In this document: positions 1 through 55,470 of the stretch, piece by piece
How the letters are laid out: each line of letters begins with the position of its first letter
Position numbering within the stretch: position 1 is the first letter of the stretch
NCBI GenBank assembly: GCA_963758085.1
Contig: CAVWUB010000004.1
Location: forward strand, 334,259-398,258
DNA from: an uncultured Planctomycetaceae bacterium
GTDB taxonomy: Bacteria; Planctomycetota; Planctomycetia; Pirellulales; Pirellulaceae
Direction of reading: 5' to 3'
Length of the DNA: 64,000 bases
Program-made: the position numbers and the translations under genes
Notes under the pieces: model-generated
The model's input: the letters and a program-made list of their open reading frames with translations, nothing else
Told to the model about the DNA's origin: nothing
The model's database searches: none

Positions 1-824
1 AAGCAATCGTCCGTCAGATGGCCAAAAACAGCCATAGTTGCGTCTACCTCAGCCTGGCGCACCTGCCAGCCGACGTCGTTCGAAACCGTTTTCCAGGCAT
101 CGCCGAAGCCTGCGCAAAGTTTAGCCTCGATATCACCCGCGACCCGATTCCGGTACGGCCAGGTGCGCACTACATGGTCGGCGGCGTGACGGTCAACCGC
201 CAGGGCCAAACGAGCTTGCCGGGATTGTGGGCTGCGGGCGAGGTGACCAGCAGCGGATTGCACGGCGCCAATCGCCTAGCGAGCAACAGCTTGCTCGAAG
301 GATTGGTCTATGGGGCACACGCCGGTCAAGCGGCATCGCGGGCCGCGGGGGAAATGCCGGACACGATGAAGGCGCTGCGGATCGAGCAGCCAGTCAATCC
401 CTCGTCCAATGAGTTCGACGTTGCCGACGTCCGCGCTTCGCTGCGCAGTTTGATGGGACGGCTGGTGGGGGTCGAACGCGATGCGGAGGGACTGCGCGAA
501 GCCGCTGCAGGCGTCGATTCTTTTTGCAGCTACGTCATGCCGCGGCAGTTCGCGAGCATCACTGGCTGGGAGTTGCAGAACCTGCTGTGCACGGCGCAGA
601 TGATGACCCGCGCCGCGTTTGCTCGTCAGGAATCCCGCGGCGTCCATTTTCGGCTGGACTATCCGGCCGTCGATGATTTGCACTGGCGGCGGCATCTGAC
701 CATCCGGATCGACCGCAACGGCGGCCAGCCGCACAAGGAAGAGCTGTTCCCAGTGCAGGCCGATCCGCTGCGTTCGGCTCACGGGGAGCGGCTCGAGCGG
801 CCCGGACCGGTGACGGCTGGCTAG
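1..824 (+). CDS. nadB: L-aspartate oxidase, C-terminal part (5' end lies outside the window)
   Basis: The translation HYMVGGVTVN...GLWAAGEVTSSGLHGANRLASNSLLEGLVYG closely matches the E. coli NadB segment HYTCGGVMVD...[31 protein letters not shown]. The ORF runs to the window edge. Confidence 0.7.
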   Translation, partial: AIVRQMAKNSHSCVYLSLAHLPADVVRNRFPGIAEACAKFSLDITRDPIPVRPGAHYMVGGVTVNRQGQTSLPGLWAAGEVTSSGLHGANRLASNSLLEGLVYGAHAGQAASRAAGEMPDTMKALRIEQPVNPSSNEFDVADVRASLRSLMGRLVGVERDAEGLREAAAGVDSFCSYVMPRQFASITGWELQNLLCTAQMMTRAAFARQESRGVHFRLDYPAVDDLHWRRHLTIRIDRNGGQPHKEELFPVQADPLRSAHGERLERPGPVTAG

Positions 825-4068: not shown

Positions 4069-5519
4069 TGATGTGGCAGTCTGCCGCCTGGATTCTTGCG
4101 CTCGACTGGACGCTGCGGATCGGCTTTGCGATCCATGTCGTGATGCGGAAGCAGTCGATTGGGATGTCGCTGTCGTGGTTGATGATTGTATTGCTGTTCC
4201 CTTTCGTCGGGCCAGCTATTTACCTGGTGCTGGGGGAAAACTGGCTGGGGATCATGCGGTCCAAATGGGCCGCGCGGATGCCGCAGCACTACCAGGCGTG
4301 GAAGTCCCGCCAGGCCAAATGGGTGTTTAACGATTGGCCCGAGCGTCTCGGCGACCCCGCCCAGCTATCGCGGATCATCACTGCCGCCAGCGGGGAAAAG
4401 CCACTGGGGGGCAACAAGTTAAAACTGCTCGAGTCGACCCGGGCGATCTTCGCTTCGATGATCGACGACATCGATCACGCCCAGAGCTCCTGCAACATGG
4501 AGTTCTACATCTGGGAAGTCGGTGGTTGGGCAGATAAGTTCTGCGAGAGCCTGCGCAACGCAGCATCGCGGGGGCTCAAGGTGCGAATTCTCGTTGATGC
4601 TGTGGGCAGCCGCGGCTTCTTGCGCAGCCGGCAATGCGCCGAACTTCGCGCAGCGGGCGCTGAAGTGCGTGCCGCTCTGCCGGTCTGGCCGCTGCGGGCG
4701 TTGTTTTACCGGTTCGATCTGCGGATGCACCGCAAAACACTGATCGTCGACGACACCATCGGCTACGTCGGCAGCCAAAACATCGCTGACCCCAAAATCT
4801 TTCGCAACGGCGCGGGCTTTGGTCAGTGGGTCGACGCGATGGTGCGGATGGTTGGGCCTGCCGTTGACTCGCTGTCGATGGTGTTTTTCGAGGACTGGCA
4901 CTTCGAGCAAAGCGATTTTGAGACGGCCAACCAGTGGGAATCAGTTCGCCCTGTTCCGGCCGCCGAGGGCACGGTGCCGGTCCAAGTGGTTCCCGCCGGA
5001 CCAGGCATCGATAGCGAAGCGATTGTGCAGATCCTGCTCAATGCGATCTACATGGCTGATCAACACCTCACCATCACAACACCGTACTTCGTGCCCGACG
5101 AGTCGCTGCAGCGGGCGCTGATCTCCGCAGCCCGGCGCGGGGTGCATGTCACGCTGGTGGTCCCCAAGAAAGTCGACTCGCGGCTGGTGCGGTTGGCTAG
5201 CCGACCGTTCTTGCGGGAACTGGTACGGGCGGGCGTGACAGTGGCCGAATACCACCGCGGGATGCTGCACACCAAATCGATCACGATCGACCACGACACC
5301 AGTTTTTTCGGGTCGCTGAACCTCGATCCCCGCAGCCTGGAGCTGAACTTTGAGTTGATGTTGGCGATCTATGACGACACATTCACACGCGATTTGATCG
5401 CCTTACAAAAGGAATACGTCGCGCAGTCGGACGTGCTGTCAGCCAACCAGATCATCGTCCCGTCATTTTTTGTGCGATTTGCAGAACGTTGTGTTCGGCT
5501 GGTCTCGCCGCTGTTGTGA
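4068..5519 (+). CDS. cls: Cardiolipin synthase (two PLD/HKD domains)
   Basis: N-terminal TM helices are followed by two HKD motifs: HRKTLIVDDTIGYVGSQNI and HTKSITIDHDTSFFGSLNLDPRS. Confidence 0.85.
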   Translation: MMWQSAAWILALDWTLRIGFAIHVVMRKQSIGMSLSWLMIVLLFPFVGPAIYLVLGENWLGIMRSKWAARMPQHYQAWKSRQAKWVFNDWPERLGDPAQLSRIITAASGEKPLGGNKLKLLESTRAIFASMIDDIDHAQSSCNMEFYIWEVGGWADKFCESLRNAASRGLKVRILVDAVGSRGFLRSRQCAELRAAGAEVRAALPVWPLRALFYRFDLRMHRKTLIVDDTIGYVGSQNIADPKIFRNGAGFGQWVDAMVRMVGPAVDSLSMVFFEDWHFEQSDFETANQWESVRPVPAAEGTVPVQVVPAGPGIDSEAIVQILLNAIYMADQHLTITTPYFVPDESLQRALISAARRGVHVTLVVPKKVDSRLVRLASRPFLRELVRAGVTVAEYHRGMLHTKSITIDHDTSFFGSLNLDPRSLELNFELMLAIYDDTFTRDLIALQKEYVAQSDVLSANQIIVPSFFVRFAERCVRLVSPLL

Positions 5520-5588
5520 TTAGCAGATTTGTTGCCGGATCTCTCTCGAAGGTTCTTCCGCGAGGCAGGTAACCCGGCTGATAACACG

Positions 5589-5724
5589 CTTGGGTGGCAC
5601 GCTCAGAGACCCAGCGATAGGCGTGAGCGGCCGGAGTAGAAGATCTGGAACGACCAGACATGGTGTGGTAGCCACGCAGTTCCATCCAGCACGCCCTTCG
5701 TTCCCCAGGGACGTGCCACCCGCA
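5589..5724 (+). repeat. Conserved ~130-nt structured element, copy 1 of 3 (candidate sRNA or MITE-like)
   Basis: The 5' end is cttGGGTGGCACGCTCAGAGacCCAGCGATaGGCGTGaGCGG and the 3' end is CAGCACGCCCTTCGTTCCcCAGGGACGTGCCACCCg. The 10-nt terminal inverted repeat is GGGTGGCACG/CGTGCCACCC and there is an inner GGGCGTG/CACGCCC pairing. It is near-identical to the segments at 18356-18488 and 45946-46080. Confidence 0.7.
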
Positions 5725-5885
5725 GGCTCACAATTCTCGCGCCCATGAGCCTTGAAGATCTCGGAAGAATCCTCTCGGAACTCTCCCCGGGCAGAACTCG
5801 AGCATGAACCGGCCCCTAGAACGCGAAAAAAAAATCGCCGAATCCGTTTTTTGGCACTGCTCTTGTCGGTTTGCGCAGCGGCCAC

Positions 5886-5915
5886 TTGACGCAAACGGCA
5901 GACGGTTCCTATCCT
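5886..5915 (+). promoter_or_regulatory. Putative sigma70-type promoter for tRNA-Thr
   Basis: TTGACG (5886-5891), an 18-nt spacer and TATCCT (5910-5915) sit about 20 nt upstream of the tRNA 5' end. The same TTGACG -35 hexamer precedes tRNA-Ala. Confidence 0.4.
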
Positions 5916-5933
5916 TAGCCTTCCCGATTGGGT

Positions 5934-6007
5934 GCCAGCGTAGCTTCAATTGGTAGAGCATCGCATTCGTAATGCGAGGGTTGCGGGTTCGAGTCCCACC
6001 GCTGGCT
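5934..6007 (+). tRNA. tRNA-Thr (anticodon CGT)
   Basis: Manual cloverleaf: acceptor GCCAGCG/CGCTGGC, D-arm GCTC-AATTGGTA-GAGC, anticodon stem TCGCA/TGCGA with loop TTCGTAA (anticodon CGT), T-loop GGTTCGAGTCC. Length 74 nt. Confidence 0.85.
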
Positions 6008-6047
6008 TTCCTACGGTTCGTCTTTCCTTACTGGAGTTCTTGCATCC

Positions 6048-7378
6048 GTGGCCAACCAAGTCGATACCCAGGTGGATCTGCGGGAGCTTGTGGTCGCTAA
6101 CCAATCGTTCGGCCCTGCCGAAGTGGCAGCGATCCGTCAAGCGATTGTGGATAATCATCTCCATTTCATCGAACTGCGCGATGCGGTCGGCGAATTGGAA
6201 GACGATCCGGGGTTGACGCCGGCAGCGAGAACCAAGCTGGGCGTTTGCCTGTACTTGCTCGGCCGGTACAAGGCGGCCAGCGAGACACTCGCGCATGCCG
6301 ATGGCGGCGCGATGGCCCTGTTTTATTCGGCCCGCTGCGCTTTGGAGATGGGCGACTATCAGGGCGCGATCGAGCGCTACGAGCAGGCGCGGAAATCAGG
6401 CTACGACGGCGATCACTGCTTGTTAGGAATTGCCGAAGCCCATCGCTACCAGGGCAACCTGCAGGAAGCGATGAACATTCTGGACAACATGTTCGGGCCG
6501 ATCGAGCAGACCGCCAACTATTTGACTCAGCGTGCCGCCACTGTCTCGGCGATTGGCGGAAACCTGTCGGAAGCGATCGCACTCTACGAGCGCGCGGTGC
6601 AAACCGACAAAAATCATTCTGGCGCGTTGTTTGGTCTGGCATCGAAAACGACCGTCAGGGCAACGACGAAGAGGCACTGGCTCTTTACGAGCGGGCAGCG
6701 AACACCTTCCCGACCGGACTCGGGGCACTGCTGAACCTCGGCGTGTTCTACGAAGACAACAACCAGTACGACAAAGCACAGGTTTGTTATCGGCGGATTC
6801 TCGATGCGTTCCCCGATCATAAACAGGCGCTGCTGTACATGAAGGACGCTTCGGCGTCCGGCAATATCCTCTACGACGAAGAAACGCAGCGTCGCAACGA
6901 CCGTTTGGCTCAGATTCTCAACCAACCGGTCAGCAACTTCGAGTTGTCGGTTCGCAGCCGCAATTGCCTGGCGAAGATGGGCATCGAGACGATCGGGGAC
7001 CTAACGCGAACCAGCGAAGCGGAACTGCTGAGCAGCAAGAACTTCGGCGAAACCAGCTTGTATGAGATTCGCGAGGTGCTCTCGAGCAAAGGATTGTCGC
7101 TTGGCCAGTTCGCCAACGAACGCAAATCGAGCGATCCGCCGATCGACACGTCCCACATGTCGCCGGACGAACAGGCACTGTTGGATCGTCCGATCGCTGA
7201 TTTGAATCTGTCGGTTCGGGCTCGCAAGTGCATGGTCCGCTTGGGCATCAATACGATTGGCGAATTGATCCGCAAGACTGGCGACGACATGCTGGAGTGC
7301 AAGAACTTCGGTGTGACGAGCTTGAACGAGGTGCGTGAGAAGCTTGCGGCTCTCGGATTGAAGATGCGGGGCGACTGA
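6048..7378 (+). CDS. TPR-repeat protein with two tandem RNA polymerase alpha C-terminal-domain (alpha-CTD)-like modules. There is an apparent +1/-1 frameshift near 6620-6660.
   Basis: TPR-like repeats (LGRYKAASE..., [20 protein letters not shown]) lie in frame 0 up to ~6640. TPR ([15 protein letters not shown]...[23 protein letters not shown]) continues in frame 2, so the two ORFs 6048-6734 and 6245-7378 most likely belong to one gene. The C-terminus has two copies of [20 protein letters not shown]...[22 protein letters not shown], closely resembling E. coli RpoA alpha-CTD ([20 protein letters not shown]...[22 protein letters not shown]). Confidence 0.6.
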
Positions 7379-7394
7379 GCAACAGCCGAGCCTC

Positions 7395-8525
7395 GTGTCA
7401 TCATTTGTCTTTCAACTCCGCCACACCGATGCAGGTTGTGGCGCACGTCGCGGCGTTTTCTCAACGCCGCGTGGCGACGTGCAGACTCCGGCGTTCATGC
7501 CGGTCGGCACCCAGGGCTCCGTCAAGGGCCTGACCATCGAGCAAGTGCGGCAGAGCGGCGCTCAGATGCTGCTGGCCAACACTTACCACTTGGCCCTGCG
7601 GCCCGGCCATGAACTGGTCCGCAAGCTTGGCGGCTTGCATGCGATGATGCGCTGGGATGGCCCGATCCTCACCGACAGCGGTGGGTTTCAGATCTTCAGC
7701 CTCGGGGAACTCAACAAGGTCACCGAAGAAGCAGCGACCTTCAAAAGTCATCTCGATGGGGCAGTCATTCGGCTGACTCCGGAATATGCGATCGAGATCC
7801 AGGAGGCGCTGGGCAGCGACATCGCGATGGTCCTGGATCACGTGGTCGCCCTGCCCAATTCGCCTGAAGTGATCATCGATGCGGTGCAGCGAAGCGTGCG
7901 CTGGGCGGCACGTTGTCTGGCGGCCTCCAATCGCGACGATCAAGCATTGTTCGCAATTGTGCAAGGCGGACTCGACGAGACGCTTCGCCGGCAATGCGCG
8001 GCGGAGCTGGCGGTGATGGATTTTGAGGGCTTCGCGGTCGGCGGCCTGAGCGTTGGTGAGCCGCCCGAGGAGATGTACCGCATCACCGCCGCGACAACGC
8101 CGGAACTTCCAGTTGACAAGCCGCGGTATCTGATGGGCGTGGGCCGACCGATCGATCTGCTGGAGTCGATTGCCCGCGGGATCGACCTGTTTGATTGCGT
8201 GATGCCGACTCGCAATGGCCGCAACGCGATGGCGTTCACCTCGACCGGACCAATCAAAATCCGCAACGCCAGCCACCGCGAGGACACCCTGCCACTCGAT
8301 CCCGAGTGCCCGTGTGTGGCCTGTCAGCACAGCCGCGGCTACCTGCGACACCTGTTCATGGCCAACGAGATGCTCGGCCCGATCCTGCTCTCCCTGCACA
8401 ACCTGACGTACTACCAACGGCTGATGGCCACCGCTCGCCAAGCGATCGAGCAAGATCGGTTTGGGGAGCTGTTAGGGCATCACCGGGAGTTGTGGAAGCG
8501 CGGAACGGTAGCAGGTAGCAGGTAG
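7395..8525 (+). CDS. tgt: Queuine tRNA-ribosyltransferase (tRNA-guanine transglycosylase)
   Basis: [25 protein letters not shown]...[13 protein letters not shown]...[13 protein letters not shown] and the zinc site [16 protein letters not shown]. Confidence 0.85.
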
Positions 8526-8662
8526 CAGGTAGCAGGTGGACGGTGGACGGTGGACGGTGGACGGAATTCTGTATTTGCCGTGAGCGGTTGGTCGAGATCA
8601 AATTCCGCAACCCGCAACCCGCAACCCGCAACCCGCAACCCGCAACCCGCAACCCGCAACCC
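8506..8662. repeat. Cluster of heptanucleotide microsatellites: (GGTAGCA)x4, (GGTGGAC)x3, (CCGCAAC)x7-8
   Basis: Read directly: ggtagcaggtagcaggtagcaggtggacggtggacggtggacgg, then after ~40 nt ccgcaacccgcaacccgcaacccgcaacccgcaacccgcaacccgcaacccg. It lies in the tgt-serC intergenic region. Confidence 0.9.
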
Positions 8663-8840
8663 GTTCTGCTTCGATCGGCGGAGCGATCGACCGCTCTGCA
8701 ACCCCCAACCAACCGCGGCACGGTTCCGCAGTTGAGCCTGGGCCGATAGAATCCTGGGCGCATGTTTTCTGCCACCTGCGGACGCGATGCTGACCAGTCG
8801 CTCTGCATGTCCCCCAACCCGCAACGCTCGGATAGCCTCC

Positions 8841-23135: not shown

Positions 23136-24329
23136 TCAAACCTTTTCGGGGCTCAGCAGCTTTTGAATTTGCTCGCTGTCCATGTTTTCTTGCGTCGCCA
23201 CATGGACGCCGGTATCGACAAACGGCTCGACCGGTTCGCCGCGGATCGCTTTGACCATGGAGACGATCGCCAAATAACCCATCTGAACCGGGTCCTGCAG
23301 GATGATCGCCGAGAGTTTGCCATCCCGCAGCGCCTTAGCCATCGCGTCGCTGGAGTCGAAGCCGACGAACACAACTTTGCCGGCAAGTTTGCGATCCTCC
23401 AGCGCTCGCAGTACCCCTTCGGCGTTCGGTTCGCAGACGGCAAAGATCCCGTTGACTTGATCGGCGTAGCGATTGAGGACCTGCTGCGCCTTGTCCATCG
23501 CCGACTCGGTGGTCGTGCCGGCGTACTGGTCGCTGCTGATCACCTTGATGTCGGGGAATGCCTCGAGGCCTTTGAGAAAACCTTCTTCGCGTTGGTGCGT
23601 GCTTTCGCTCCCCTTGTTGTACCGCAGCAGGATGACGTTGCCCTTGCCACCGAGTTTCTCGGCCATCACTTCGGCCGCCAATTGGCCGCCGCGGTAATTG
23701 TCGGTGGAAACGTAGCTGGCAAACGCATCGGACGGGGCATTGAGTGCGCTGTCGAAGATCACCACCGGCACGCCGCCCCGGCGAGCTTCTTGAACGGGCC
23801 GGACCAGCGCATCGGCGTCGAGCGGCGCCAGACAGATGCCGTCGACCTGCTTGTTGACGAACCCCTGAACGACGTTGATCTGTTCGTCCCGGTCGCTTTC
23901 CTTTTGCGGTCCCCGCCACTGAATGTCGGCACCCAGTTCTTCGCCGGCCTTGAGCGCTCCGTAGTGGACCGACTTCCAAAAGATATGAGTTGTCCCCTTA
24001 GGGATCATCGCGATCTGCAGCCGCCGACCATCGCTGCCCGCAGCGGTCGATGCGGCTTGTTTGTCTGCGGAGGCCGGCGGTTGGCAGGCCACGGTGACGC
24101 CGAGCAGGAGCAACAGCAGGGGGGCAAGGTAACGCAAGGGAAAGTCGCCTCGTGAGGTGGGAAGATCGGGCAGCGATGTTGGGGACGCTGCCGCAGAGGT
24201 GAATAGTCCGGCCGAGCGAAGGTTGCCGTGATGGGTCGGGCTATTTGCCGTGCACCAGACGTTTAAACGCTTCGCTGAGCCGGAGCGTGATTTTACCCGG
24301 TTTGCCGTCGCCAATGGTGCGGTTATCAA
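23136..24329 (-). CDS. Periplasmic sugar-binding protein of an ABC transporter (RbsB/LacI-like PBP fold), probably a lipoprotein
   Basis: IAMIPKGTTHIFWKSVHYGALKAGEELG...VDGICLAPLDADALVRPVQEARRGGVPVVIFDS is typical of a PBP-I sugar-binding protein. A signal peptide with a lipobox (LGVTVAC) is present. The start codon is uncertain. Confidence 0.7.
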   Translation of the reverse strand: MITAPLATANRVKSRSGSAKRLNVWCTANSPTHHGNLRSAGLFTSAAASPTSLPDLPTSRGDFPLRYLAPLLLLLLGVTVACQPPASADKQAASTAAGSDGRRLQIAMIPKGTTHIFWKSVHYGALKAGEELGADIQWRGPQKESDRDEQINVVQGFVNKQVDGICLAPLDADALVRPVQEARRGGVPVVIFDSALNAPSDAFASYVSTDNYRGGQLAAEVMAEKLGGKGNVILLRYNKGSESTHQREEGFLKGLEAFPDIKVISSDQYAGTTTESAMDKAQQVLNRYADQVNGIFAVCEPNAEGVLRALEDRKLAGKVVFVGFDSSDAMAKALRDGKLSAIILQDPVQMGYLAIVSMVKAIRGEPVEPFVDTGVHVATQENMDSEQIQKLLSPEKV

Positions 24330-25105
24330 CCTTTGTCACTGAAATCACTTCGGCCGCACTACCGGTCAGGAAGCACTCGTCGGCGACGTAGATGTCATGA
24401 CGGACGAGCGTTTTTTCAGCCAGCGGAATGCCTTCGGCAGCGGCCAGCTCAATCACGGTGTTGCGGGTGATGCCTTCCAAGATGCCGGCATCGGTCGGTG
24501 GGGTGATCAGCATCCCGTGCTTAACGATGAAGATGTTGTCGCCGGTACACTCGGCCACTTCGCCCTTGTGGTTGAGCATCAGCGCTTCGTCGCAGCCGGC
24601 GCAGCCCTTCCATCTTCGCCAGAATGTTATTGAGATAGTTGAGCGATTTGATCCGCGGGCTCAGTGCCGCGGAGTGGTTGCGCATCGTCGACGCGGTGAC
24701 GATTTCCATCCCATCGCGGTAACGCTCCGGCGGATACAGCGCGATATGGTCGGTGATGATGATCACCTGCGGATTGGAGCAGCGATTGGGGTCCAGGCCC
24801 AGACTGCCGCTGCCGCGGGTGACGACCAGGCGGATGTACGCGTCGCTAAGCTGATTCACCTCCAACGTGCTGCGGACGCTATCGGCCATCGCCGCTTTGT
24901 CGATCGGGATGCTCAAGCCGATTGCCAGCGCCGATTCGTAGAGCCGATCGAGGTGTTCGGCGAGTTTGAACACTCGTCCGCTGTAGGCCCTCATCCCCTC
25001 GAAGACTCCATCGCCGTAGAGCAAGCCGTGGTCATAGACGCTGATTTTGGCGTCTTCTTTGTCGAACAATTGGCCGTTGATGGAAACCTTCAGGCTCATG
25101 ATCAA
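24241..25105 (-). CDS. ilvE: Branched-chain / class IV aminotransferase, interrupted by a single-nucleotide frameshift near 24595
   Basis: The N-terminal part (24521-25105) contains [22 protein letters not shown]...[14 protein letters not shown]. The C-terminal part (24241-24579, other frame) contains [28 protein letters not shown]...[11 protein letters not shown]. The junction ctgcgccggctgcgac reads LRAGCDEAL if one G is restored. Confidence 0.7.
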
Positions 25106-27098: not shown

Positions 27099-28365
27099 GT
27101 GATCGCCCCTTCTCGAGTCGATTCGCTTCCCGATTCTCAGCGGATTGTTATCACCGGCATCGGATTGACGTCTCCCAACGGCAACGATTGGCAATCCTTT
27201 CGCCAAGCGCTGTTAGAGAAACGCAGTGGCGTTAGGCCATACGAAATTCGCTACGTCGGCGAGACGCTGGCCGGCGTCTGCGATTTCGACGCGCTGCGAT
27301 ACCAGACGAAGAAAGACCTCCGCCGCGGCACCCGTGCCGGCAGCGTCGGCATCTACTGCAGCCAACGAGGCGGTCAAGCGACTGCGGGCTCGATTGGGCA
27401 AACATCGATCGTTCGCGCGTCGGCATCTACATCGGCGTGACCGAGCACGGCAACGTCGAGACCGAGAACGAGATCTACGAGATCAAGGGCTACGACTACG
27501 ACACCAAGGTCTGGTCGCACCACCACAATCCGCGCACGGTGGCCAACAACCCGGCCGGCGAAATCACGCTGAACATGGGCATCACCGGGCCCGCACTACA
27601 CGATCGGCGCCGCCTGTGCCGCCGGCAATGCCGGGCTGATCCAGGGCGCGCAGATGCTGCGGCTGGGCGAATGCGACGTGGCGCTGGCCGGCGGCGTCTC
27701 GCGAAAGCATTCACACGTTCGGCATCTTCGCCAGCTTCAAGAGCCAAGGCGCGCTGGCCACGCACGAGCGATCCGGCCCAAGCCGTCGCGCCGTTCGACC
27801 GCGATCGCAACGGCATCGTCGTGGCCGAAGGCGGCTGCGTCTACGTGCTGGAACGGCTCAGCGACGCGAAGAACCGCGGCGCGAAGATCTACGGCGAGCT
27901 GGCCGGCTACGCGATGAACACCGACGCCACCGACTTCGTGCTGCCCAATCCCGAGCGGCAGGCGCAGTGCATCGCAGCTGGCGCTGCAGCGCGCCGGGCT
28001 GGAGCCGGAGGAGATCGACATCGTCAGCACCCACGCCACGGGCACCAACAGCGGCGACGTCCAGGAGTGCGATGCGCTGCGCGGGTGTTCGGCGATTGCA
28101 AGACGGTGAAGTTCAACAACACCAAGAGCTTCATCGGCCACGCGATGGGCGCCGCCGGAGCGCTGGAATTGGCCGGCAACCTTGCCGGCCTTCGACGACG
28201 GCGTCGTGCCACGCCACGATCAACGTCGACGACCTCGATCCCGAGTGCGCTCTGCCGGGATTAGTGACCGGTGAGGCTCAGGAAGTCCGCGGCGTCGACT
28301 ACATTCTGAACAACTCGTTCGGCATGCTGGGCATCAACTCGGTCGTGATCATCCGGCGCGTGTAA
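27099..28365 (+). pseudogene. Beta-ketoacyl-ACP synthase (FabF/KAS-II-like), multiply frameshifted
   Basis: KAS segments were followed through all three frames: VITGIGLTSPNGNDWQSF (f0), AANEAVKRL (f1), IDRSRVGIYIGVTEHGN...ITGP (f2), HYTIGAACAAGNAGLIQGAQMLRLGECDVALAGGVS (f0), ESIHTFGIFASFKSQGALATHE (f1), FDRDRNGIVVAEGGCVYVLERLSDAKNRGAKIYGELAGY (f2), LALQRAGLEPEEIDIVSTHATGTNSGDVQECDALRG (f0), VFGDCKTVKFNNTKSFIGHAMGAAGALE (f2), TINVDDLDPECALPGL...NNSFGMLGINSVVIIRRV (f1). That gives about 8 frameshifts. Confidence 0.75.
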
Positions 28366-28441
28366 TTTCCAGTTATCAGGCAGCCCCACCAGCGGTACGG
28401 ACTGCATCTGCGATTGCCTTTATCCATTCACCACAGAGAAC

Positions 28442-28690
28442 CTACCGACCATGAGTCCCGCCGAAATCCGCGATGAGATCCTCGACATTCTTGGAGACAT
28501 CGCTCCGGACGAGGACCTCGACGAATGGTCGACGACAAGAACTTCCGCGAGCAGATGGAACTCGACAGCATGGACTTCCTCGACATCGTGATGGAACTCC
28601 GCAAGCGCCATCGCATGCAGATTCCGGAGGAGGATTACGGCCAATTGGCCAGCATGCAGACCACGGTGAGCTACCTCGAACCGAAAGATG
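28442..28690 (+). pseudogene. Acyl carrier protein, frameshifted once
   Basis: MSPAEIRDEILDILGDIAPDEDLDEW in one frame continues as LVDDKNFREQMELDSMDFLDIVMELRKRH in another. This is an ACP helix II region (DSM/DSL-like). Confidence 0.55.
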
Positions 28691-28722
28691 CGCAGACATC
28701 GTCAAGGCATAGCCTGCGCCAT

Positions 28723-30119
28723 GTACGACACGATCATCATCGGCGCCGGCATGTCCGGGTTGGCCGCGGGCATCCGCCTGGCATACTACGACCAGCGGGT
28801 CTGCATCCTCGAGCGGCACTACACGATCGGCGGGCTCAACTCGTTCTACCGCCTGCGCGGCCGCGATTACGACGTCGGCCTGCACGCGGTCACGAACTTC
28901 ACGCCCAAGGGGACCGCAGACGGGCCGCTGGCCCGGTTGCTGCGTCAGCTGCGTTTCAACTGGGAAGACTTCGCCCTGGCCGCAGATCGGCTCGTCGATT
29001 CGCTTTCCCGGCGTCAGTCTCGACTTCGGCAACGACATCGAACTGCTGCAAAGCGAGATCGCGCGCGAGTTTCCCGACTGGTCGAGGCAACTTGCGAAAC
29101 TGCTGCGATTCAGCTCGTCGACTACGACGATCTGGCGGGAGATGATCCGAACTTCAACCGCAGCGCCCGCACGGTGCTGGAGCAGTTGATCCCGATCCGC
29201 TGCTCGTCGAAATGCTGCTCTGCCCGCTGATGTGGTACGGCAATGCCCGCGAGGACGACATGGACTGCGGCCAGTTCTGCATCATGTTCCGCAGCATTTA
29301 TCTCGAAGGGTTCGGCCGTCCGTTCACCGGCGTGCGACTGATCCTCAAGACTCTGGTGCGCAAGTTCCGCGGCCTGGGCGGCGAACTGAAACTCCGCAGC
29401 GGTGTGTCGCGGATCCACGTCGAGGACGGCCGCGCCGTCGGCGTGGTGCTCGACGATGGGACGGAGCTCGCCGGCCGCCGCATCCTGTCCTCAGCCGGCA
29501 CGGTCGAAACGCTGCGGATGTGCGACGACATCACCGAAGTCGACGTGGCCAAAGCGGGCCAGCTGAGCTTTATCGAGTCGATCTCGATCCTCGATGTTCA
29601 ACCCAAGGACATCGGATACGACCGCACGATCGTGTTTTACAACGACAGCGAGACCTTCCATTGGCGGCGGCCCGAACAAGGACTGTGCGATATGCGCACC
29701 GGCGTCATCTGCTCGCCGAACAACTATCGTTATGATGCCGCCGACGGAATGCTGCCCGACGGTGTCATCCGGATCACCACGCTGGCCAACTACGACCGCT
29801 GGTGTGCGTTGCCCGAACCGATGTACCGGGCCGAGAAGGTCGCTCGGTACGACCGCGGTCGCACTCGGCGGTGCGGTTCATGCCCGACTTCCGCCGGCAC
29901 GTCATCGACACCGACATGTTCACGCCCACGACGATCCGCCGCTTCACCTGGCACGACAACGGCGCGGTGTACGGCGCGCCGGACAAACGGCTCGACGGCA
30001 CGACGCATCTGAAGAACCTGTTCCTCTGCGGCACCGACCAGGGCTTCGTCGGCATCATCGGCGCCATTATCAGCGGCATCAGCATGGCCAATCGCCACTG
30101 CCTCGTCTCAGCCGACTGA
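28723..30119 (+). pseudogene. FAD-dependent oxidoreductase (phytoene-desaturase/amine-oxidase-like), multiply frameshifted
   Basis: The N-terminus MYDTIIIGAGMSGLAAGIRLA (Rossmann GxGxxG) and C-terminus LFLCGTDQGFVGIIGAIISGISMA (FAD-binding) are in different frames. The body is split over at least 3 frames with at least 5 shifts (ORFs 28688-29230, 29212-30012, 29802-30119). Confidence 0.65.
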
Positions 30120-50645: not shown

Positions 50646-53591
50646 ATGAGCCTTGCCCTGATCGTTTTGCTCCCGTTTCTCGGAGCCGTGCTACCGGCGC
50701 TGATGATTCGTTCAGGACGAGATGCGTGTGCGATCGCGACCGGATCAATCAACACGCTCGCTCTGGCACTTTTGCTGACCAACATCCCGGCAGTGCTCCG
50801 CGGCGAGGTCGTTCGCGCCGATTGGCCGTGGATGTCTCGCCTGGGCTTGAATATCCAGTTCTTCGTCGATGGGCTCGGGTTGCTGTTTGCCGCGATGATT
50901 TTGGGCATCGGGCTGCTGATCGTGCTGTATGCCCGATTCTACCTGTCCGATGGCGACACGATGGGCAACTTTTACACGTACCTACTGCTCTTTCAGGGGG
51001 CGATGGTCGGCATCGTGTTGTCCAACAACGTGCTGCTGATGCTGATCTTTTGGGAACTAACCAGCCTGTCGTCGTTCTTGTTGATCGGATTTTGGGGACA
51101 TACGGCGGCCGGGCGGCAGGGCGCGAGGATGGCGCTGACGGTCACCGGCGGAGGAGGGTTGGCATTAATCGCTGGCATGATGCTGCTGGGGCACATCGCC
51201 GGCTCCTATGAGTTGACCGAGATCCTTACCAGCGGCGCGGCAGTCCGCAGTTCAGCGCTCTATCCGTGGGCACTGATGCTGATCCTGATTGGCTGTTTCA
51301 CCAAGAGTGCGCAGTTTCCATTTCACTTCTGGCTGCCTCATGCCATGGCTGCGCCGACACCGGTTTCGGCGTACCTGCACTCAGCGACGATGGTCAAAGC
51401 GGGCATCTTTCTGATGGCCAGGTTGTGGCCGGTCCTATCGGGGACTGACCTGTGGTTCTACATCGTCGCGACGACAGGCCTGGTGACGATGCTGGTCGCC
51501 GCCACCATTGCGCTGTTTGAAGACGACCTAAAAGGTTTATTGGCTTATTCTACGGTCAGCCACTTAGGTCTGATGACGATGCTGCTGGGGTTTTCAACGC
51601 CGATGGCGGTGGTTGCCTGCATGTTGCACATCATCAATCATGCGACATTTAAGGCGGCCCTGTTTATGAATACCGGTATCATCGATCACGAGACCGGTAC
51701 CCGAGACCTTCGCAAACTTGGCGGGCTGATCCACCTCATGCCGATGACGGCAACGCTCGGCATCACGGCCGCCGCGTCGATGGGTGGTTTACCGCTGCTA
51801 AGTGGCTTTCTCTCTAAAGAGATGATGCTCGAGGAGGCATCTCATACCGTCTGGGCGGGATCAACTTGGGTGCTTCCCGTGCTGGTCACGCTGGCAGCAG
51901 TGCTGTCAATGGCATACTCGCTGCGCTACATCGCTCACCTGTACCTCGGCAAACAACGCGATGACTACCCTCAACCGCCGCACGATCCAGGGTTGGGCTT
52001 AACGCTGCCGTCGGCTGTGTTGGTGGTCTTGGTGGTCTTGGTCGGGTTGTTTCCTGAAACGTTTGCGGGAACCACGGTGCGACTTGCATCGTCAGCTGTA
52101 CTGCAAGCACCGCTGCCGGAGTTTCACCTGGCGATCTGGCACGGTTGGACTCCGGCCGTGACAATGTCGGCGATCGCAATCGTCGTCGGATTTAGCACAT
52201 TGCTCGCATTTGGTTTGATTCGTGAACCTTGGACGCGGCTGCCGCTGCCCGTAGGCAAGTCGCTCTTTGATGCCCTCATCGATGCGCTTGCCGCCCTTTC
52301 GCGGGCGGTGGGCTCAGGACTCCACAACGGTTCGCTGCAGCGCTATTTGTTTGTGATGATCACCACCACACTCATCCTGGGCATGTGGTCATTTATAAGG
52401 CACGAACATGCCGCTGGCCAGCGGCCTCTGATGCCAATCAACGCAGTCGTTTTCGTTGCCTGGTTGCTCCTGATGGGCTCTTGCTTCTTGATCATCCGCC
52501 ATCATGCAGACCGTTTATTGGCGTTGATCATTGTCAACGTGATCGGGCTGATCGCGTCACTGGGGTTCGTCTACCTGTCAGCACCCGACCTGGCGCTGAC
52601 TCAGATTTCGGTCGAGGTGGTGACGCTGATCCTGATGCTCTTGGCGCTTTACTTCTTGCCAAAACATTCACTGACAGCGGTAACGCGGGCGGTGCGTGTT
52701 CGGCATGGCCTGTTGTCGGTGTTTGCCGGAGCAGCCGCAGGTGGTCTGACCTGGGCGATGATGACACGCGATTCCAAGTCAATTTCAGAATACTACTGGC
52801 AACAGGCGATTCCCGGCAGCGGCGGCAAGAATGTCGTCAATGTGATCATCGTTGACTTCCGCGGCTTTGACACTTTCGGCGAGATCATGGTACTGGGCAT
52901 CTCAGCGCTGATCATCTACGCACTGCTCGAGGGGATGCTGCGCGGGGAGGCATTGATGAAGCTGGCAATGTGGAACTCAGACCAGCGGTATTCACCCAAT
53001 CGCCACCCACTGGTGATGGTGGTGGTAACGCGGCTGATGTTACCTTTGGCGCTGATGGTCAGCGTGTTCATCTTCCTGCGCGGCCATAATATGCCAGGAG
53101 GCGGCTTCATTGCCGCATTGGTGGTGGCGATTGCGCTGATCATGCAGTACATGGCCAGCGGGTTCGGCTGGGCCGCCAAGCAGGTGCGATTCGACTACCA
53201 CGCGCTGATCGGCGGCGGTGCCTTGATCGCTGCGGCGACAGGGATTTCTGCGATGGTTCTGGATCTCCCCTTTCTGACCAGCGGCCATGACCATTTTCAT
53301 TTGCCTTGGATCGGCGACGTCGAACTTTCCAGTACCGTCGCATTTGATCTTGGCGTGTTTCTAACAGTAGTTGGCGGGGTGATGCTGGCGCTGGCGCAGT
53401 TATCTTACCTCGGAGAGAACACCGCTCGAGAAAAGATGAATGAAGAGCCGATGGATTTTGATCCCTCGGCGCGGCGGCCTCGGCTCGCCTCTGCCGATCA
53501 ACAAGCGGCAAGTGCAGCGGCGTCGCTGCCGCGACCTCAAGCCGGCCAGATCACTGGTTCGGAAGCGTCCGATTTCCCTAAAGAGCACTGA
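50646..53591 (+). CDS. mrpA: Na+/H+ antiporter subunit A, fused with subunit B (MrpA/MrpB)
   Basis: A 981-aa polytopic protein with NuoL-like MrpA conservation. The extra ~200 aa at the C-terminus are consistent with an MrpB fusion. It is the first gene of a 7-cistron mrp cluster. Confidence 0.8.
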   Translation: MSLALIVLLPFLGAVLPALMIRSGRDACAIATGSINTLALALLLTNIPAVLRGEVVRADWPWMSRLGLNIQFFVDGLGLLFAAMILGIGLLIVLYARFYLSDGDTMGNFYTYLLLFQGAMVGIVLSNNVLLMLIFWELTSLSSFLLIGFWGHTAAGRQGARMALTVTGGGGLALIAGMMLLGHIAGSYELTEILTSGAAVRSSALYPWALMLILIGCFTKSAQFPFHFWLPHAMAAPTPVSAYLHSATMVKAGIFLMARLWPVLSGTDLWFYIVATTGLVTMLVAATIALFEDDLKGLLAYSTVSHLGLMTMLLGFSTPMAVVACMLHIINHATFKAALFMNTGIIDHETGTRDLRKLGGLIHLMPMTATLGITAAASMGGLPLLSGFLSKEMMLEEASHTVWAGSTWVLPVLVTLAAVLSMAYSLRYIAHLYLGKQRDDYPQPPHDPGLGLTLPSAVLVVLVVLVGLFPETFAGTTVRLASSAVLQAPLPEFHLAIWHGWTPAVTMSAIAIVVGFSTLLAFGLIREPWTRLPLPVGKSLFDALIDALAALSRAVGSGLHNGSLQRYLFVMITTTLILGMWSFIRHEHAAGQRPLMPINAVVFVAWLLLMGSCFLIIRHHADRLLALIIVNVIGLIASLGFVYLSAPDLALTQISVEVVTLILMLLALYFLPKHSLTAVTRAVRVRHGLLSVFAGAAAGGLTWAMMTRDSKSISEYYWQQAIPGSGGKNVVNVIIVDFRGFDTFGEIMVLGISALIIYALLEGMLRGEALMKLAMWNSDQRYSPNRHPLVMVVVTRLMLPLALMVSVFIFLRGHNMPGGGFIAALVVAIALIMQYMASGFGWAAKQVRFDYHALIGGGALIAAATGISAMVLDLPFLTSGHDHFHLPWIGDVELSSTVAFDLGVFLTVVGGVMLALAQLSYLGENTAREKMNEEPMDFDPSARRPRLASADQQAASAAASLPRPQAGQITGSEASDFPKEH

Positions 53592-53593
53592 AG

Positions 53594-53947
53594 ATGGAAT
53601 ATCTAGTGGCGAGCGCGGTGGCGGTGATGGCCGCTGCGGGAGTTTACCTGACGCTCAGCCAAGGAACCTTCACCATTGTGATCGGACTGACCCTGCTGAC
53701 CTATGCGACCAATTTGTTTCTCTTCACGATGGGGCGCTTGGCTGCCAATCAACCGGGCATTATCTTCGATCCGGCGGCTCCCCATTCTGATCCGATTCCA
53801 CAAGCACTGGTACTGACGGCAATCGTCATCTCTTTCGGGATGACGGCACTGCTACTGGTAATGTCCGTGCGCGGGTACTTTGAGAGTGATGGCGACACCG
53901 TCGACCTGCTTGGCCCCGAGGAAACGGTGGCGCGGAGCCGGCAATGA
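53594..53947 (+). CDS. mrpC: Na+/H+ antiporter subunit C (NuoK-like)
   Basis: A 117-aa, 3-TM protein (LTLLTYATNLFLFTMG), positioned after mrpA. Confidence 0.75.
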   Translation: MEYLVASAVAVMAAAGVYLTLSQGTFTIVIGLTLLTYATNLFLFTMGRLAANQPGIIFDPAAPHSDPIPQALVLTAIVISFGMTALLLVMSVRGYFESDGDTVDLLGPEETVARSRQ

Positions 53948-55470
53948 ACCATTGGTTGATCCTACCGATCTTAGTGCCTGCCATTGTGGCGCCCCTACTG
54001 GCGATGGCGGTCCGACACGACATTGTGCTGGCACGCGTTTACTCAGTCGGCTCGACCGTTTTACTCGTGCTGATTGGACTCCTGCAAGTTTGGATGGCGT
54101 TTGACGGAACAACGCGCACCTATGCGCTGGGCAACTGGGCGGCGCCGTTCGGGATCATTTTGGTCCTGGATCGCTTGGCGGCGATCATGCTGCTGCTGAC
54201 CGCCGTGCTGGGATTGTTCGTTCTGCTCTATGCCATCAATGGGTGTGACCGCCGCGGACAACATTTTCACGCGCTGTTTCAGTTTCAGTTGATGGGGCTC
54301 AATGGTGCATTTTTAACGGGTGACCTGTTTAATCTGTTTGTGTTTTTCGAGGTTTTGCTGATTGCATCGTATGGGCTAATGGTTCATGGCGGCGGTGCGG
54401 CAAGAACGCGAGCAGCAATCCAGTACGTGGTTGTGAACCTCGTCGGCTCGAGCCTGTTCCTGTTCGCTTTGGGATTGATTTATGGTGTCACCGGCACGCT
54501 AAACATGGCCGACTTGGCGACAAAGGTCCCTCAAGTTGAAAGCGGCAATCGAGCCTTGCTTTACACCGGCGCCACACTGCTGTTGATCGTTTTCGGTCTG
54601 AAAGCCGCGATGGTCCCGCTGCATTTTTGGTTGCCCGGAACGTATGCCAATACGACCGGCCCTGTGGCGGCACTGTTTTCGATCATGACGAAGGTCGGTG
54701 CTTACGGGATCATCCGCGTTTTTATTTTGGCGTTTGGCCCAGCGGAAGGTGAAAACGGTTGGTTCATGGCCGATTGGTTGATGCCGTCGGCGGCCATCAC
54801 CGTGGTGTTAGGAATGATCGGGGTTGTCGCCGCACGCAGCCTCAGTCAGCAAGGTAGCTTCGCCGCCATGGCGTCGATGGGAACCGTGATGATTGCGGTT
54901 GCCGGTTTTACCCCGCAGACGGAATCGGCGGCGCTCTACTACCTCATTCATTCCACCCTTGCAATTGCGGCGTTGTTCCTCGTCATCGACGCGGTGACCA
55001 TCCGCCGCCCCGGCTTTGGCGATGCGTTGACCACCGCTCCTCAGTTCGCTCAGATCGGCTTGATTGGATCGATGTTTTTCGTCACTGTGATTGCGGTAGC
55101 CGGACTGCCGCCACTCTCCGGCTTCACCGGCAAACTGCTCATTCTCGACGCAACTAGGGGACTGCAGGGCTGGGGGTGGATTTGGGCTGTGATTTTAGGA
55201 ACATCGCTGCTGGCATTGATCAGTTTTGCCAGTAGCGGGAGTGTGATTTTCTGGAAAAGCACATCGGTCGAGGGCACATTGGTCACAGCGGATCGCCCGC
55301 CAATCGCGTTGCCCATGGTAGCCATTGGATCCGTTCTCGCGATCTTGTTTCTGTTCACGGCAGCGTCACCCGCAGTCAACAGCTACCTCGATGCGACCGC
55401 CGAGCAACTCTTCGATTCTCAGCAATACATCCGCGCTGTCCTCGATGAAGCGGAGCTTGCCTCGTCATGA
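53944..55470 (+). CDS. mrpD: Na+/H+ antiporter subunit D (NuoM/N-like)
   Basis: A 508-aa polytopic protein with the proton-pumping antiporter-like fold. It overlaps mrpC by 4 nt. Confidence 0.8.
   Translation: MNHWLILPILVPAIVAPLLAMAVRHDIVLARVYSVGSTVLLVLIGLLQVWMAFDGTTRTYALGNWAAPFGIILVLDRLAAIMLLLTAVLGLFVLLYAINGCDRRGQHFHALFQFQLMGLNGAFLTGDLFNLFVFFEVLLIASYGLMVHGGGAARTRAAIQYVVVNLVGSSLFLFALGLIYGVTGTLNMADLATKVPQVESGNRALLYTGATLLLIVFGLKAAMVPLHFWLPGTYANTTGPVAALFSIMTKVGAYGIIRVFILAFGPAEGENGWFMADWLMPSAAITVVLGMIGVVAARSLSQQGSFAAMASMGTVMIAVAGFTPQTESAALYYLIHSTLAIAALFLVIDAVTIRRPGFGDALTTAPQFAQIGLIGSMFFVTVIAVAGLPPLSGFTGKLLILDATRGLQGWGWIWAVILGTSLLALISFASSGSVIFWKSTSVEGTLVTADRPPIALPMVAIGSVLAILFLFTAASPAVNSYLDATAEQLFDSQQYIRAVLDEAELASS

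Follow-up and report, generated by a model that had tools for sequence, protein, structure and literature searches.

The stretch of DNA considered here, 64,000 nucleotides (nt) from an uncultured Planctomycetaceae bacterium and called the window in what follows, carries at positions 6048-7378 of its plus strand a gene for a protein in which two tandem copies of the C-terminal domain of the RNA polymerase alpha subunit (alpha-CTD) are mounted on a scaffold of tetratricopeptide repeats (TPR). All coordinates are those of the window unless another locus is named. The explanation that in our view accounts best for the findings, at a probability of about 0.55, is that this is a single gene whose interrupted reading frame is an artefact, and whose product is a trans-acting adaptor between DNA and protein. 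The gene is a Pirellulaceae member of a catalogued but uncharacterised Planctomycetota family of cytoplasmic proteins of 430-460 amino acids (aa). The family is already recognised at the level of its domains in the databases; what is new is the view of the detached, tandem alpha-CTDs on a TPR scaffold as a biological system.

As written in the window, the gene is split over two overlapping open reading frames (ORFs), 6048..6734 in frame 0 and 6245..7378 in frame 2, both on the plus strand, which when joined across the frame break give one protein of 443 aa, in which a helical N-terminus is followed by about 6.5 TPR repeats and then by two RNA_pol_A_CTD domains. The 5' part of the gene (6048..6640, frame 0) starts with GTG and runs through codon 197 into the first two bases of Ala codon 198; it encodes an acidic helical N-terminus (aa 1-55) together with the first TPRs. 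The 3' part (6641..7378, frame 2) covers codons 199-443 and ends in a TGA stop. The closest orthologue, P0001 from the related locus L001, also has a GTG start, and its N-terminus reads VANQVDTQ likewise. The TPR solenoid, which has about 13 helices and is supported by Pfam, AlphaFold and Foldseek, occupies 6213..6862 (aa 56-272) and thus spans the frame break; a connector containing a conserved helix, with a YDEE motif (6863..6919, aa 273-291) leads from it to the first alpha-CTD. This copy 1 (6920..7111, aa 292-355) is the more RpoA-like of the two. An acidic, Ala-rich and flexible linker of low model confidence (7112..7162, aa 356-372) separates it from copy 2 (7163..7375, aa 373-443).

The domain assignment is secure. 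In the Pfam search, RNA_pol_A_CTD (PF03118) matched with E=5.7e-45 and 151.3 bits, where the cut-off is 23.8; the match falls into two stretches, at about aa 292-355 and aa 371-434, the latter being the best stretch within copy 2, and some ten TPR families, including TPR_19, TPR_2, TPR_16 and TPR_1, scored above cut-off over aa ~60-265. When the protein was searched against the PDB by sequence, the alpha-CTDs of RpoA were the only matches. Copy 1 aligned without gaps to the E. coli alpha-CTD 1coo_A (E=2.9e-15), while the best PDB matches of copy 2 were alpha-CTDs of the B. subtilis type, such as 3gfk_B. Over 66 ungapped positions copy 1 is 53% identical to the E. coli domain and copy 2 is 36% identical to it, and the two copies share 44% identity with each other. 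An earlier note, made from the letters of this DNA before any search, had described TPR repeats followed by two tandem alpha-CTD-like domains that align nearly residue for residue with the E. coli alpha-CTD; this description is borne out, with C-terminal repeats that score as RNA_pol_A_CTD far above threshold and a copy 1 that needs no gap.

The same note had pointed to a switch from frame 0 to frame 2 near 6620-6660, and the switch is indeed present in the given sequence. One base is missing after 6640 (break at 6639..6641, plus strand), namely the third base of Ala codon 198, of which only GC is left, within a TPR helix; frame 0 as written runs on to a stop at 6732-6734. The comparison with L001, a metagenome contig from JGI that has the same gene order as the window, locates the lesion precisely. 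Its protein is 97% identical to the window protein at 100% coverage, and the DNA alignment, at 88% nt identity, has its sole gap at 6640/6641, where the window reads CTGGC-ATCG and L001 reads TTG GCG CTG. All of the 81 related loci have an unbroken ORF of 441-447 aa. Between the window and L001 the ratio of nonsynonymous to synonymous substitution rates (dN/dS) is 0.032 before the break and 0.014 after it, at dS values of 0.64-0.78. Because dN/dS is this low at such a divergence, the alpha-CTD part must have been under very strong purifying selection for about the whole time since the two lineages separated.

It is also worth considering how the rest of the window reads. A class-IV aminotransferase gene (ilvE-like, 24241-25105, minus strand) is likewise broken, by a single-base deletion near 24590, such that the ORF 24521..25105 matches positions 1-129 of the Pfam profile Aminotran_4 and the ORF 24241..24579 matches positions 140-223. 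At 27099-30012 (plus strand), a beta-ketoacyl-ACP synthase-like gene and, after it, an FAD/NAD oxidoreductase-like gene are both in pieces over several frames; a codon-usage scan finds about ten frame changes between 27.1 and 30.0 kb, and the Pfam ketoacyl-synt matches are spread across different ORFs. This fragmentation is a sign either of a poor consensus in the window or of genes decaying locally. Single-base frame errors are many in the window, and care is needed with its gene calls. A separate observation concerns the operon of a Mrp/Mnh-type multisubunit cation/proton antiporter (50646-55470, plus strand), where short gene overlaps resemble frameshifts; its genes, as identified from their ORF translations, are intact.

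We read the break at 6640/6641 as a sequence error because the relatives are intact without exception, because dN/dS downstream of it is only 0.014, and because other single-base breaks occur in the same window. That the break is a sequencing or assembly error is in our judgement quite probable, and that 6048-7378 is one intact orthologous gene and not two is close to certain, and it is very probable that the protein is made in full length. The alternative that the frameshift is real would leave us with a recent pseudogene, or with a 228-aa TPR-only fragment whose alpha-CTD part has been lost or is re-initiated separately. The deletion does stand in the given sequence, with frame 0 ending at 6734, and the missing base lies outside any long homopolymer, two points that count for this alternative. 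Against it, 81 of 81 relatives are unbroken; a dN/dS of 0.014 at a dS of 0.78 downstream means that any inactivation would have to be extremely recent; and the breaks in the ilvE-like, ketoacyl-synthase and oxidoreductase genes within the same 64 kb speak for poor consensus quality rather than for selective decay. A real frameshift is therefore improbable, and the scenario of separate or degraded genes, by which the earlier note allowed that its proposal could fall, fails on the same evidence, with the other breaks lying in housekeeping genes. As for a programmed -1 ribosomal frameshift, the downstream frame would be regained by slipping back one base at CUG-G, but 6630-6645 contains no slippery heptamer of the form X XXY YYZ, not one of the 81 orthologues requires such an event, and similar breaks occur in other genes of the window, so that the idea is effectively refuted by the intact orthologues and retains only a negligible probability.

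A word-indexed search for members of the family returned proteins of 443 aa by the hundreds, with identities of 72-97%; their sources are Rubripirellula, Rhodopirellula, Novipirellula, Stieleria and many metagenome-assembled genomes (MAGs) of Pirellulaceae. When representatives at 50% identity were searched exhaustively, 415 clusters reached E<=1e-30, and the best 150 of these 415 are nearly all full-length matches of about 430-460 aa at 33-51% identity. Exactly two alpha-CTDs were found in 138 of the 149 best representatives, and the other 11, mostly short or partial, had one match or none. In the longer members (472-507 aa) we found no extra Pfam domain, and their extensions are probably mis-called starts. 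The more distant members carry names such as Phycisphaerae, Candidatus Brocadiae, Thermoguttaceae and 'Planctomycetota bacterium'; we saw none whose name points to a different phylum, in searches that did not address restriction to Planctomycetota exhaustively. The earlier note had named Planctomycetes as the group in which to look for paralogues, and this guess at the group agrees with the planctomycete names of the relatives and with the great abundance of homologues there. What that note left unmentioned was that the family is already catalogued and phylum-wide, and that the gene has a conserved tRNA-Thr/tgt neighbourhood, described below; its reading of the domains holds all the same. In the databases the proteins are called either 'DNA-directed RNA polymerase subunit alpha C-terminal domain-containing protein' or 'tetratricopeptide repeat protein', and JGI and some NCBI records misname them 'DNA-directed RNA polymerase subunit alpha'. 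One MAG, UBA6163, holds two near-identical copies of the neighbourhood (L002 and L004, with EEP, PLD, tRNA-Thr, the gene, tgt and serC), which are probably due to strain heterogeneity or to duplicate contigs in the bin, and are not paralogues.

What the two domains might do can be approached through the residues they have kept. From published work on the E. coli alpha-CTD, residues R265, N268, C269, N294, G296, K298, S299 and E302 are known to contact DNA, and D259 and E261 to contact region 4 of sigma. We counted the equivalents of these and of some other residues in 116 aligned sequences from across the phylum, taking the E. coli domain as reference and checking its numbering against the sequence. 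R265, whose equivalents in the protein are R303 in copy 1 and R391 in copy 2, is kept in copy 1 by all 116 sequences and in copy 2 by 104. The same full conservation in copy 1 is seen for N294, G296, S299 and E302, and copy 2 keeps these residues in 101, 101, 100 and 114 sequences, respectively. N268 is kept by 111 in copy 1 and is Lys or Arg in 108 in copy 2; C269 is kept by 114 in copy 1 and is Cys in 72 and Ala in 37 in copy 2; and L262 is kept by 115 and 82. The family has a signature of its own in KNFG(E/x)TSL, in which Lys takes the place of P293 (108 of 116 in copy 1; Lys in 84 and Arg in 23 in copy 2). As judged from these alignments, no other part of the protein is as strictly conserved as the RpoA-type DNA-binding surface, or 265 determinant, in which a single systematic change affects the phosphate-contacting lysine. 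The conserved DNA-contact residues favour a protein that binds DNA over one that acts purely as a protein decoy. The roles put forward in the earlier note, competition for UP elements or for activator contact surfaces and the tethering of TPR partners to promoter DNA, are plausible proposals.

The predicted structure adds to this picture. An AlphaFold model, built on P0001 with the 116 aligned homologues, has a mean predicted local distance difference test score (pLDDT) of 86.9. It comprises three N-terminal helices (aa 11-51), a TPR solenoid of about 13 helices (aa 58-272, pLDDT 88-96), the connector helix (aa 278-291), alpha-CTD 1 (aa 295-350), an inter-domain linker of low confidence (aa 351-372, pLDDT 54-65) and alpha-CTD 2 (aa 373-437); the only low-confidence linker is the one between the two alpha-CTDs. 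Foldseek against the PDB returned generic TPR superhelices only, and is uninformative on function. Among 82 Pirellulaceae sequences, mean conservation is 0.91 and 0.93 in the two alpha-CTDs and 0.91 in the connector, compared with 0.80 in the TPR region and 0.72 in the N-terminus. All 116 sequences have a segment of exactly 26 residues from D267, where the TPR region ends, to P294, where alpha-CTD 1 begins, though overall identity drops to about 33%. The Glu- and Ala-rich stretch that links the two alpha-CTDs has between 20 and 41 residues in the same sequences. Because the one spacing is invariant and the other is not, copy 1 appears to be rigidly mounted on the TPR scaffold and copy 2 to be flexibly tethered.

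Taken together, these features would fit the following mechanism. Both alpha-CTDs would bind the minor groove and backbone of DNA through their R265-type surface, much as an alpha dimer places its two alpha-CTDs on the subsites, proximal and distal, of an UP element. With copy 1 rigidly held, the TPR solenoid would have a fixed orientation relative to the DNA, while the tethered copy 2 could reach a neighbouring site and make a second contact. The partner of the solenoid would be a protein, possibly a regulator, a sigma factor or RNA polymerase itself, and the net role would be that of a trans-acting adaptor linking DNA to the transcription machinery, or of a nucleoid-organising factor. In Pirellulaceae the gene would probably be transcribed together with tgt from a tRNA-Thr promoter, which would tie the level of the protein to growth. 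The parts of this scheme are not equally firm. Going by the conserved residues, we lean slightly towards the protein binding DNA through its alpha-CTDs; the specific adaptor role is tentative. Somewhat more speculative still is the extension by which this detached alpha-CTD pair would be a universal planctomycete transcription factor that, independently of the polymerase, recognises UP-like DNA and perhaps also sigma region 4, with the TPR solenoid recruiting or excluding RNA polymerase at growth-rate-controlled promoters such as those of rRNA and tRNA.

Several observations weigh against our reading. Nearly all members have Thr (115 of 116 in copy 1 and 94 of 116 in copy 2) in place of K298, which makes a key phosphate contact in E. 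coli, and K297 is Glu in copy 1 (113 of 116) and variable in copy 2 (Gln in 55, Val in 30); judging by these substitutions, the affinity or the specificity for DNA may differ from that of RpoA, or may be lost. Neither alpha-CTD is basic, and the rest of the protein is acidic, with a net charge of -16 for the N-terminus and TPR region and of -1 and +1 for the two alpha-CTDs; the corresponding value for the E. coli alpha-CTD is 0. The predicted template modelling score (pTM) of the AlphaFold model is only 0.61. No consistently adjacent gene that could encode a partner of the TPR solenoid was seen among the neighbourhoods of the distant loci L082-L090. Finally, full-text literature searches found no published study of a family with TPRs and two alpha-CTDs. 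The rpoA gene of Rhodopirellula baltica, RB12626, is mentioned in the paper we read only as being repressed by salt, and that paper has nothing on the TPR-alpha-CTD family.

The main rival is that the protein is a decoy or competitor. Its alpha-CTDs would then mimic the surface of the polymerase and titrate its ligands, be they activators, Spx-like or NusA-like factors or sigma region 4, or else they would occupy UP elements to the exclusion of RNA polymerase. Copy 1 keeps the 261 determinant, with D259 in 86 and E261 in 104 of the 116 sequences (copy 2 has a mixture of acidic and amide residues at these positions, Glu in 44 and Asp in 43 at the first, Glu in 57 and Asn in 24 at the second), and it keeps much of the 287 determinant as well, with Thr or Ser at 285 in 112, E286 in 116 and E288 in 88. 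The constant changes K298T and K297E could weaken DNA binding and yet spare the protein-contact surfaces, and the alpha-CTDs are nearly uncharged overall. However, the most invariant residues in copy 1 are the DNA-contacting R265, N268, N294, G296, S299 and E302 (111-116 of 116), which is hard to explain if the protein does not bind DNA, and a pure decoy has no obvious need for a conserved TPR solenoid that is rigidly attached. We therefore rate the decoy as unlikely, and prefer DNA binding by the alpha-CTDs as the starting point.

A second rival draws on the neighbourhood of the gene. In the window the gene is preceded by a tRNA-Thr with anticodon CGT (5934..6007, plus strand; found by ARAGORN, and scored at 57.2 bits by the Rfam tRNA model), which ends 40 nt before its start, and is followed 16 nt past its stop by tgt, the gene for queuine tRNA-ribosyltransferase (7395..8525, plus strand; Pfam TGT, E=1.4e-153). 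Upstream of the tRNA lies a promoter-like sequence, TTGACG-18 nt-TATCCT (5886..5915, plus strand). It is the sole sigma-70-like match in 5500-8700, and since one match found compares with 0.8 expected, it is weak alone; a TTGAC(G)-17..20-TAnnnT pattern recurs at the same offset upstream of tRNA-Thr(CGT) in the 12 closest loci (L001-L012) and in 32 of 72 overall. No terminator-like site was found in the window between tRNA-Thr, the gene and tgt. Among the 81 related loci, all of Pirellulaceae, tRNA-Thr(CGT) is upstream in 80, on the same strand in 72 (at 28-216 nt, median 95) and on the opposite strand in 8, and tgt is directly downstream in 79, at a median of 16 nt. From this arrangement, co-transcription of tRNA-Thr, the TPR-alpha-CTD gene and tgt from the tRNA promoter is plausible in most Pirellulaceae. 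Several loci of the Rubripirellula type show a recurring TTGGCAC(G) motif instead, with a spacing unlike that of a canonical sigma-54 -24/-12 promoter.

In the more distant loci the neighbours vary. In two loci from Brocadiae (L082 and L083) a prepilin peptidase gene lies downstream; two from Phycisphaerae (L084 and L085) have SpoIID or unrelated genes as neighbours; L086 has RuvA, and the neighbour in L087 is a gene of no known identity. Three others show longer runs: the gene is followed by ruvA-ruvB-queH-spoIID in L088, by queH-spoIID-tgt-yajC-secD in L089 and by spoIID-tgt-yajC-secDF in L090. A linkage with tgt that is specific to Pirellulaceae, as L082-L087 alone would suggest, does not hold, since tgt, queH, spoIID and ruvAB recur downstream in L088-L090. 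A 95-nt 'tRNA-Thr(GGT)' reported by ARAGORN in L082 was not counted as a conserved upstream tRNA, as it lies within the called prepilin-peptidase gene. The order ruvAB, que genes, tgt-yajC-secDF is widespread in bacteria. It thus seems that the gene heads an ancestral housekeeping block of ruvAB, queuosine genes and tgt-yajC-secDF, of which its adjacency to tgt in Pirellulaceae is a remnant, and we take the synteny as a sign that a housekeeping gene has been inherited vertically and not as proof of a link to queuosine.

This bears directly on the second rival, in which the alpha-CTDs would act as helix-hairpin-helix modules that bind structured RNA, and the protein would work with the adjoining enzymes of queuosine tRNA modification. 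The place of the gene between tRNA-Thr and tgt in about 80 Pirellulaceae loci would suit such a role, as would the presence of queH, tgt or both one to three genes downstream in three distant lineages (L088-L090). But the arrangement resembles the widespread block ruvAB-que-tgt-yajC-secDF, which includes the unrelated spoIID, ruvAB and secDF, and the other lineages (L082-L087) have neither queH nor tgt as a neighbour. Besides, tRNA-Thr is not a substrate for queuosine, and alpha-CTD domains have no known RNA-binding role. An RNA or tRNA role, resting only on the neighbourhood, is accordingly weaker than the decoy and has little probability in our estimate, and the reading as a DNA-to-protein adaptor is left ahead of both.

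The least viable of the functional rivals is that the protein is an RNA polymerase alpha subunit, or a second alpha that assembles into the core. The database records misnamed in this way would suggest so, and Francisella does have two different alpha subunits (PDB 6wmp). However, the Pfam matches of the protein are limited to TPR families and RNA_pol_A_CTD, with no N-terminal domain of the alpha subunit (alpha-NTD), which is the dimerisation domain; when E. coli RpoA was used in tblastn, its residues 200-315 alone matched. The NCBIfam rpoA equivalogs give 88-140 bits against cut-offs of 228-523 (NF003513, 140 bits against 302; TIGR02027, 131.6 against 227.8), and only the last ~80 positions of their profiles align. 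The gene lies outside the rpsK-rpsD-rpoA-rplQ cluster, between tRNA-Thr and tgt as in the roughly 80 related loci, and no further alpha-CTD and no rpoA was found in the 64-kb window; the related loci analysed are likewise free of rpoA. The reading as an alpha subunit is refuted at the level of the sequence and keeps only a very slight probability, and the protein is, as was first proposed, a stand-alone one, separate from rpoA.

An observation unrelated to these questions concerns the DNA around the end of tgt, where three perfect heptanucleotide tandem arrays, (GGTAGCA)x4.4, (GGTGGAC)x4.3 and (CCGCAAC)x8.4, follow each other at 8507-8663. Matching arrays are found in L001 at 8459-8701 of that locus, in 6.9, 7.4 and 14.7 copies and with GGAGGAC as the second unit, and they are absent in L004, a relative of 87% identity. 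The first array overlaps the stop region of tgt, so a change in its copy number would alter the C-terminal tail of Tgt.

The gene matters beyond this window. The alpha-CTD is the main reader of UP elements and the docking site for activators in bacterial RNA polymerase, and nearly all studies have treated it as a part of RpoA; gene regulation in planctomycetes, for its part, is poorly understood. Here a whole phylum keeps two alpha-CTDs on a separate TPR scaffold, with their DNA-contact residues under strict purifying selection and their architecture fixed. This phylum-wide conservation of detached alpha-CTDs suggests that transcription or chromosome organisation in planctomycetes involves a general factor that has gone unrecognised, a candidate transcription factor that is not specific to the window. 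On the more speculative reading given above, if it is true, the detached pair would be a phylum-specific layer of global promoter control that has no characterised counterpart in model bacteria. The orthologues in cultivated Rhodopirellula, Rubripirellula and Planctopirus make the idea directly testable.

How does the protein compare with systems that are known? Among non-specific DNA binders with paired helix-hairpin-helix motifs, (HhH)2, domain II of RuvA and ComEA also contact the DNA backbone, and ruvA happens to be the next gene in two of the distant members; the window protein has no Pfam match to HHH or HHH_5, and its match is specific to RNA_pol_A_CTD. The alpha-CTD fold has been met as a mobile module outside RpoA before. 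Three NCBIfam models, PRK07758 (a 95-aa hypothetical protein), PRK14906 (a beta' model) and the BREX kinase PglW, match the alpha-CTD regions with E=9.2e-13, 3e-08 and 8.5e-08, respectively, but the window protein is far below their cut-offs, and none of them joins TPRs with two tandem copies. In the fusion of a TPR solenoid to a DNA-binding module, the protein brings to mind the RRNPP regulators (PlcR/NprR) and the SARP-NOD-TPR regulators (AfsR), in which the solenoid binds a peptide or protein ligand. Those regulators have an N-terminal helix-turn-helix (HTH) or winged-helix (OmpR-type) domain, are lineage-specific, occur in multiple copies and adjoin their targets, whereas the present family has two C-terminal alpha-CTDs and a fixed length and architecture across the phylum. 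The window protein has no Pfam match to an HTH or Trans_reg_C domain, no sequence relationship to either group of regulators was detected, and no conserved cognate peptide or target gene was found next to the family loci L082-L090.

The closest comparison is with RpoA itself. The likeness to its alpha-CTD (PF03118; structures 1coo and, for the complex of CAP, alpha-CTD and DNA, 1lb2) is one of true homology, and extends to the DNA-contact residues and to most residues of the 261 determinant. Even the number of domains is alike, as there are two alpha-CTDs per polymerase and two per molecule of the window protein. The differences are just as clear. With no alpha-NTD, the window protein cannot assemble into the core polymerase in the way of alpha; its family has Thr at K298, Glu or a variable residue at K297 and Lys at P293; and its gene lies outside the rpoA operon. 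Its two alpha-CTDs, moreover, stand in tandem on one chain, and the first of them is held not on a flexible linker, as in RpoA, but on a connector of 26 residues that is invariant in length.

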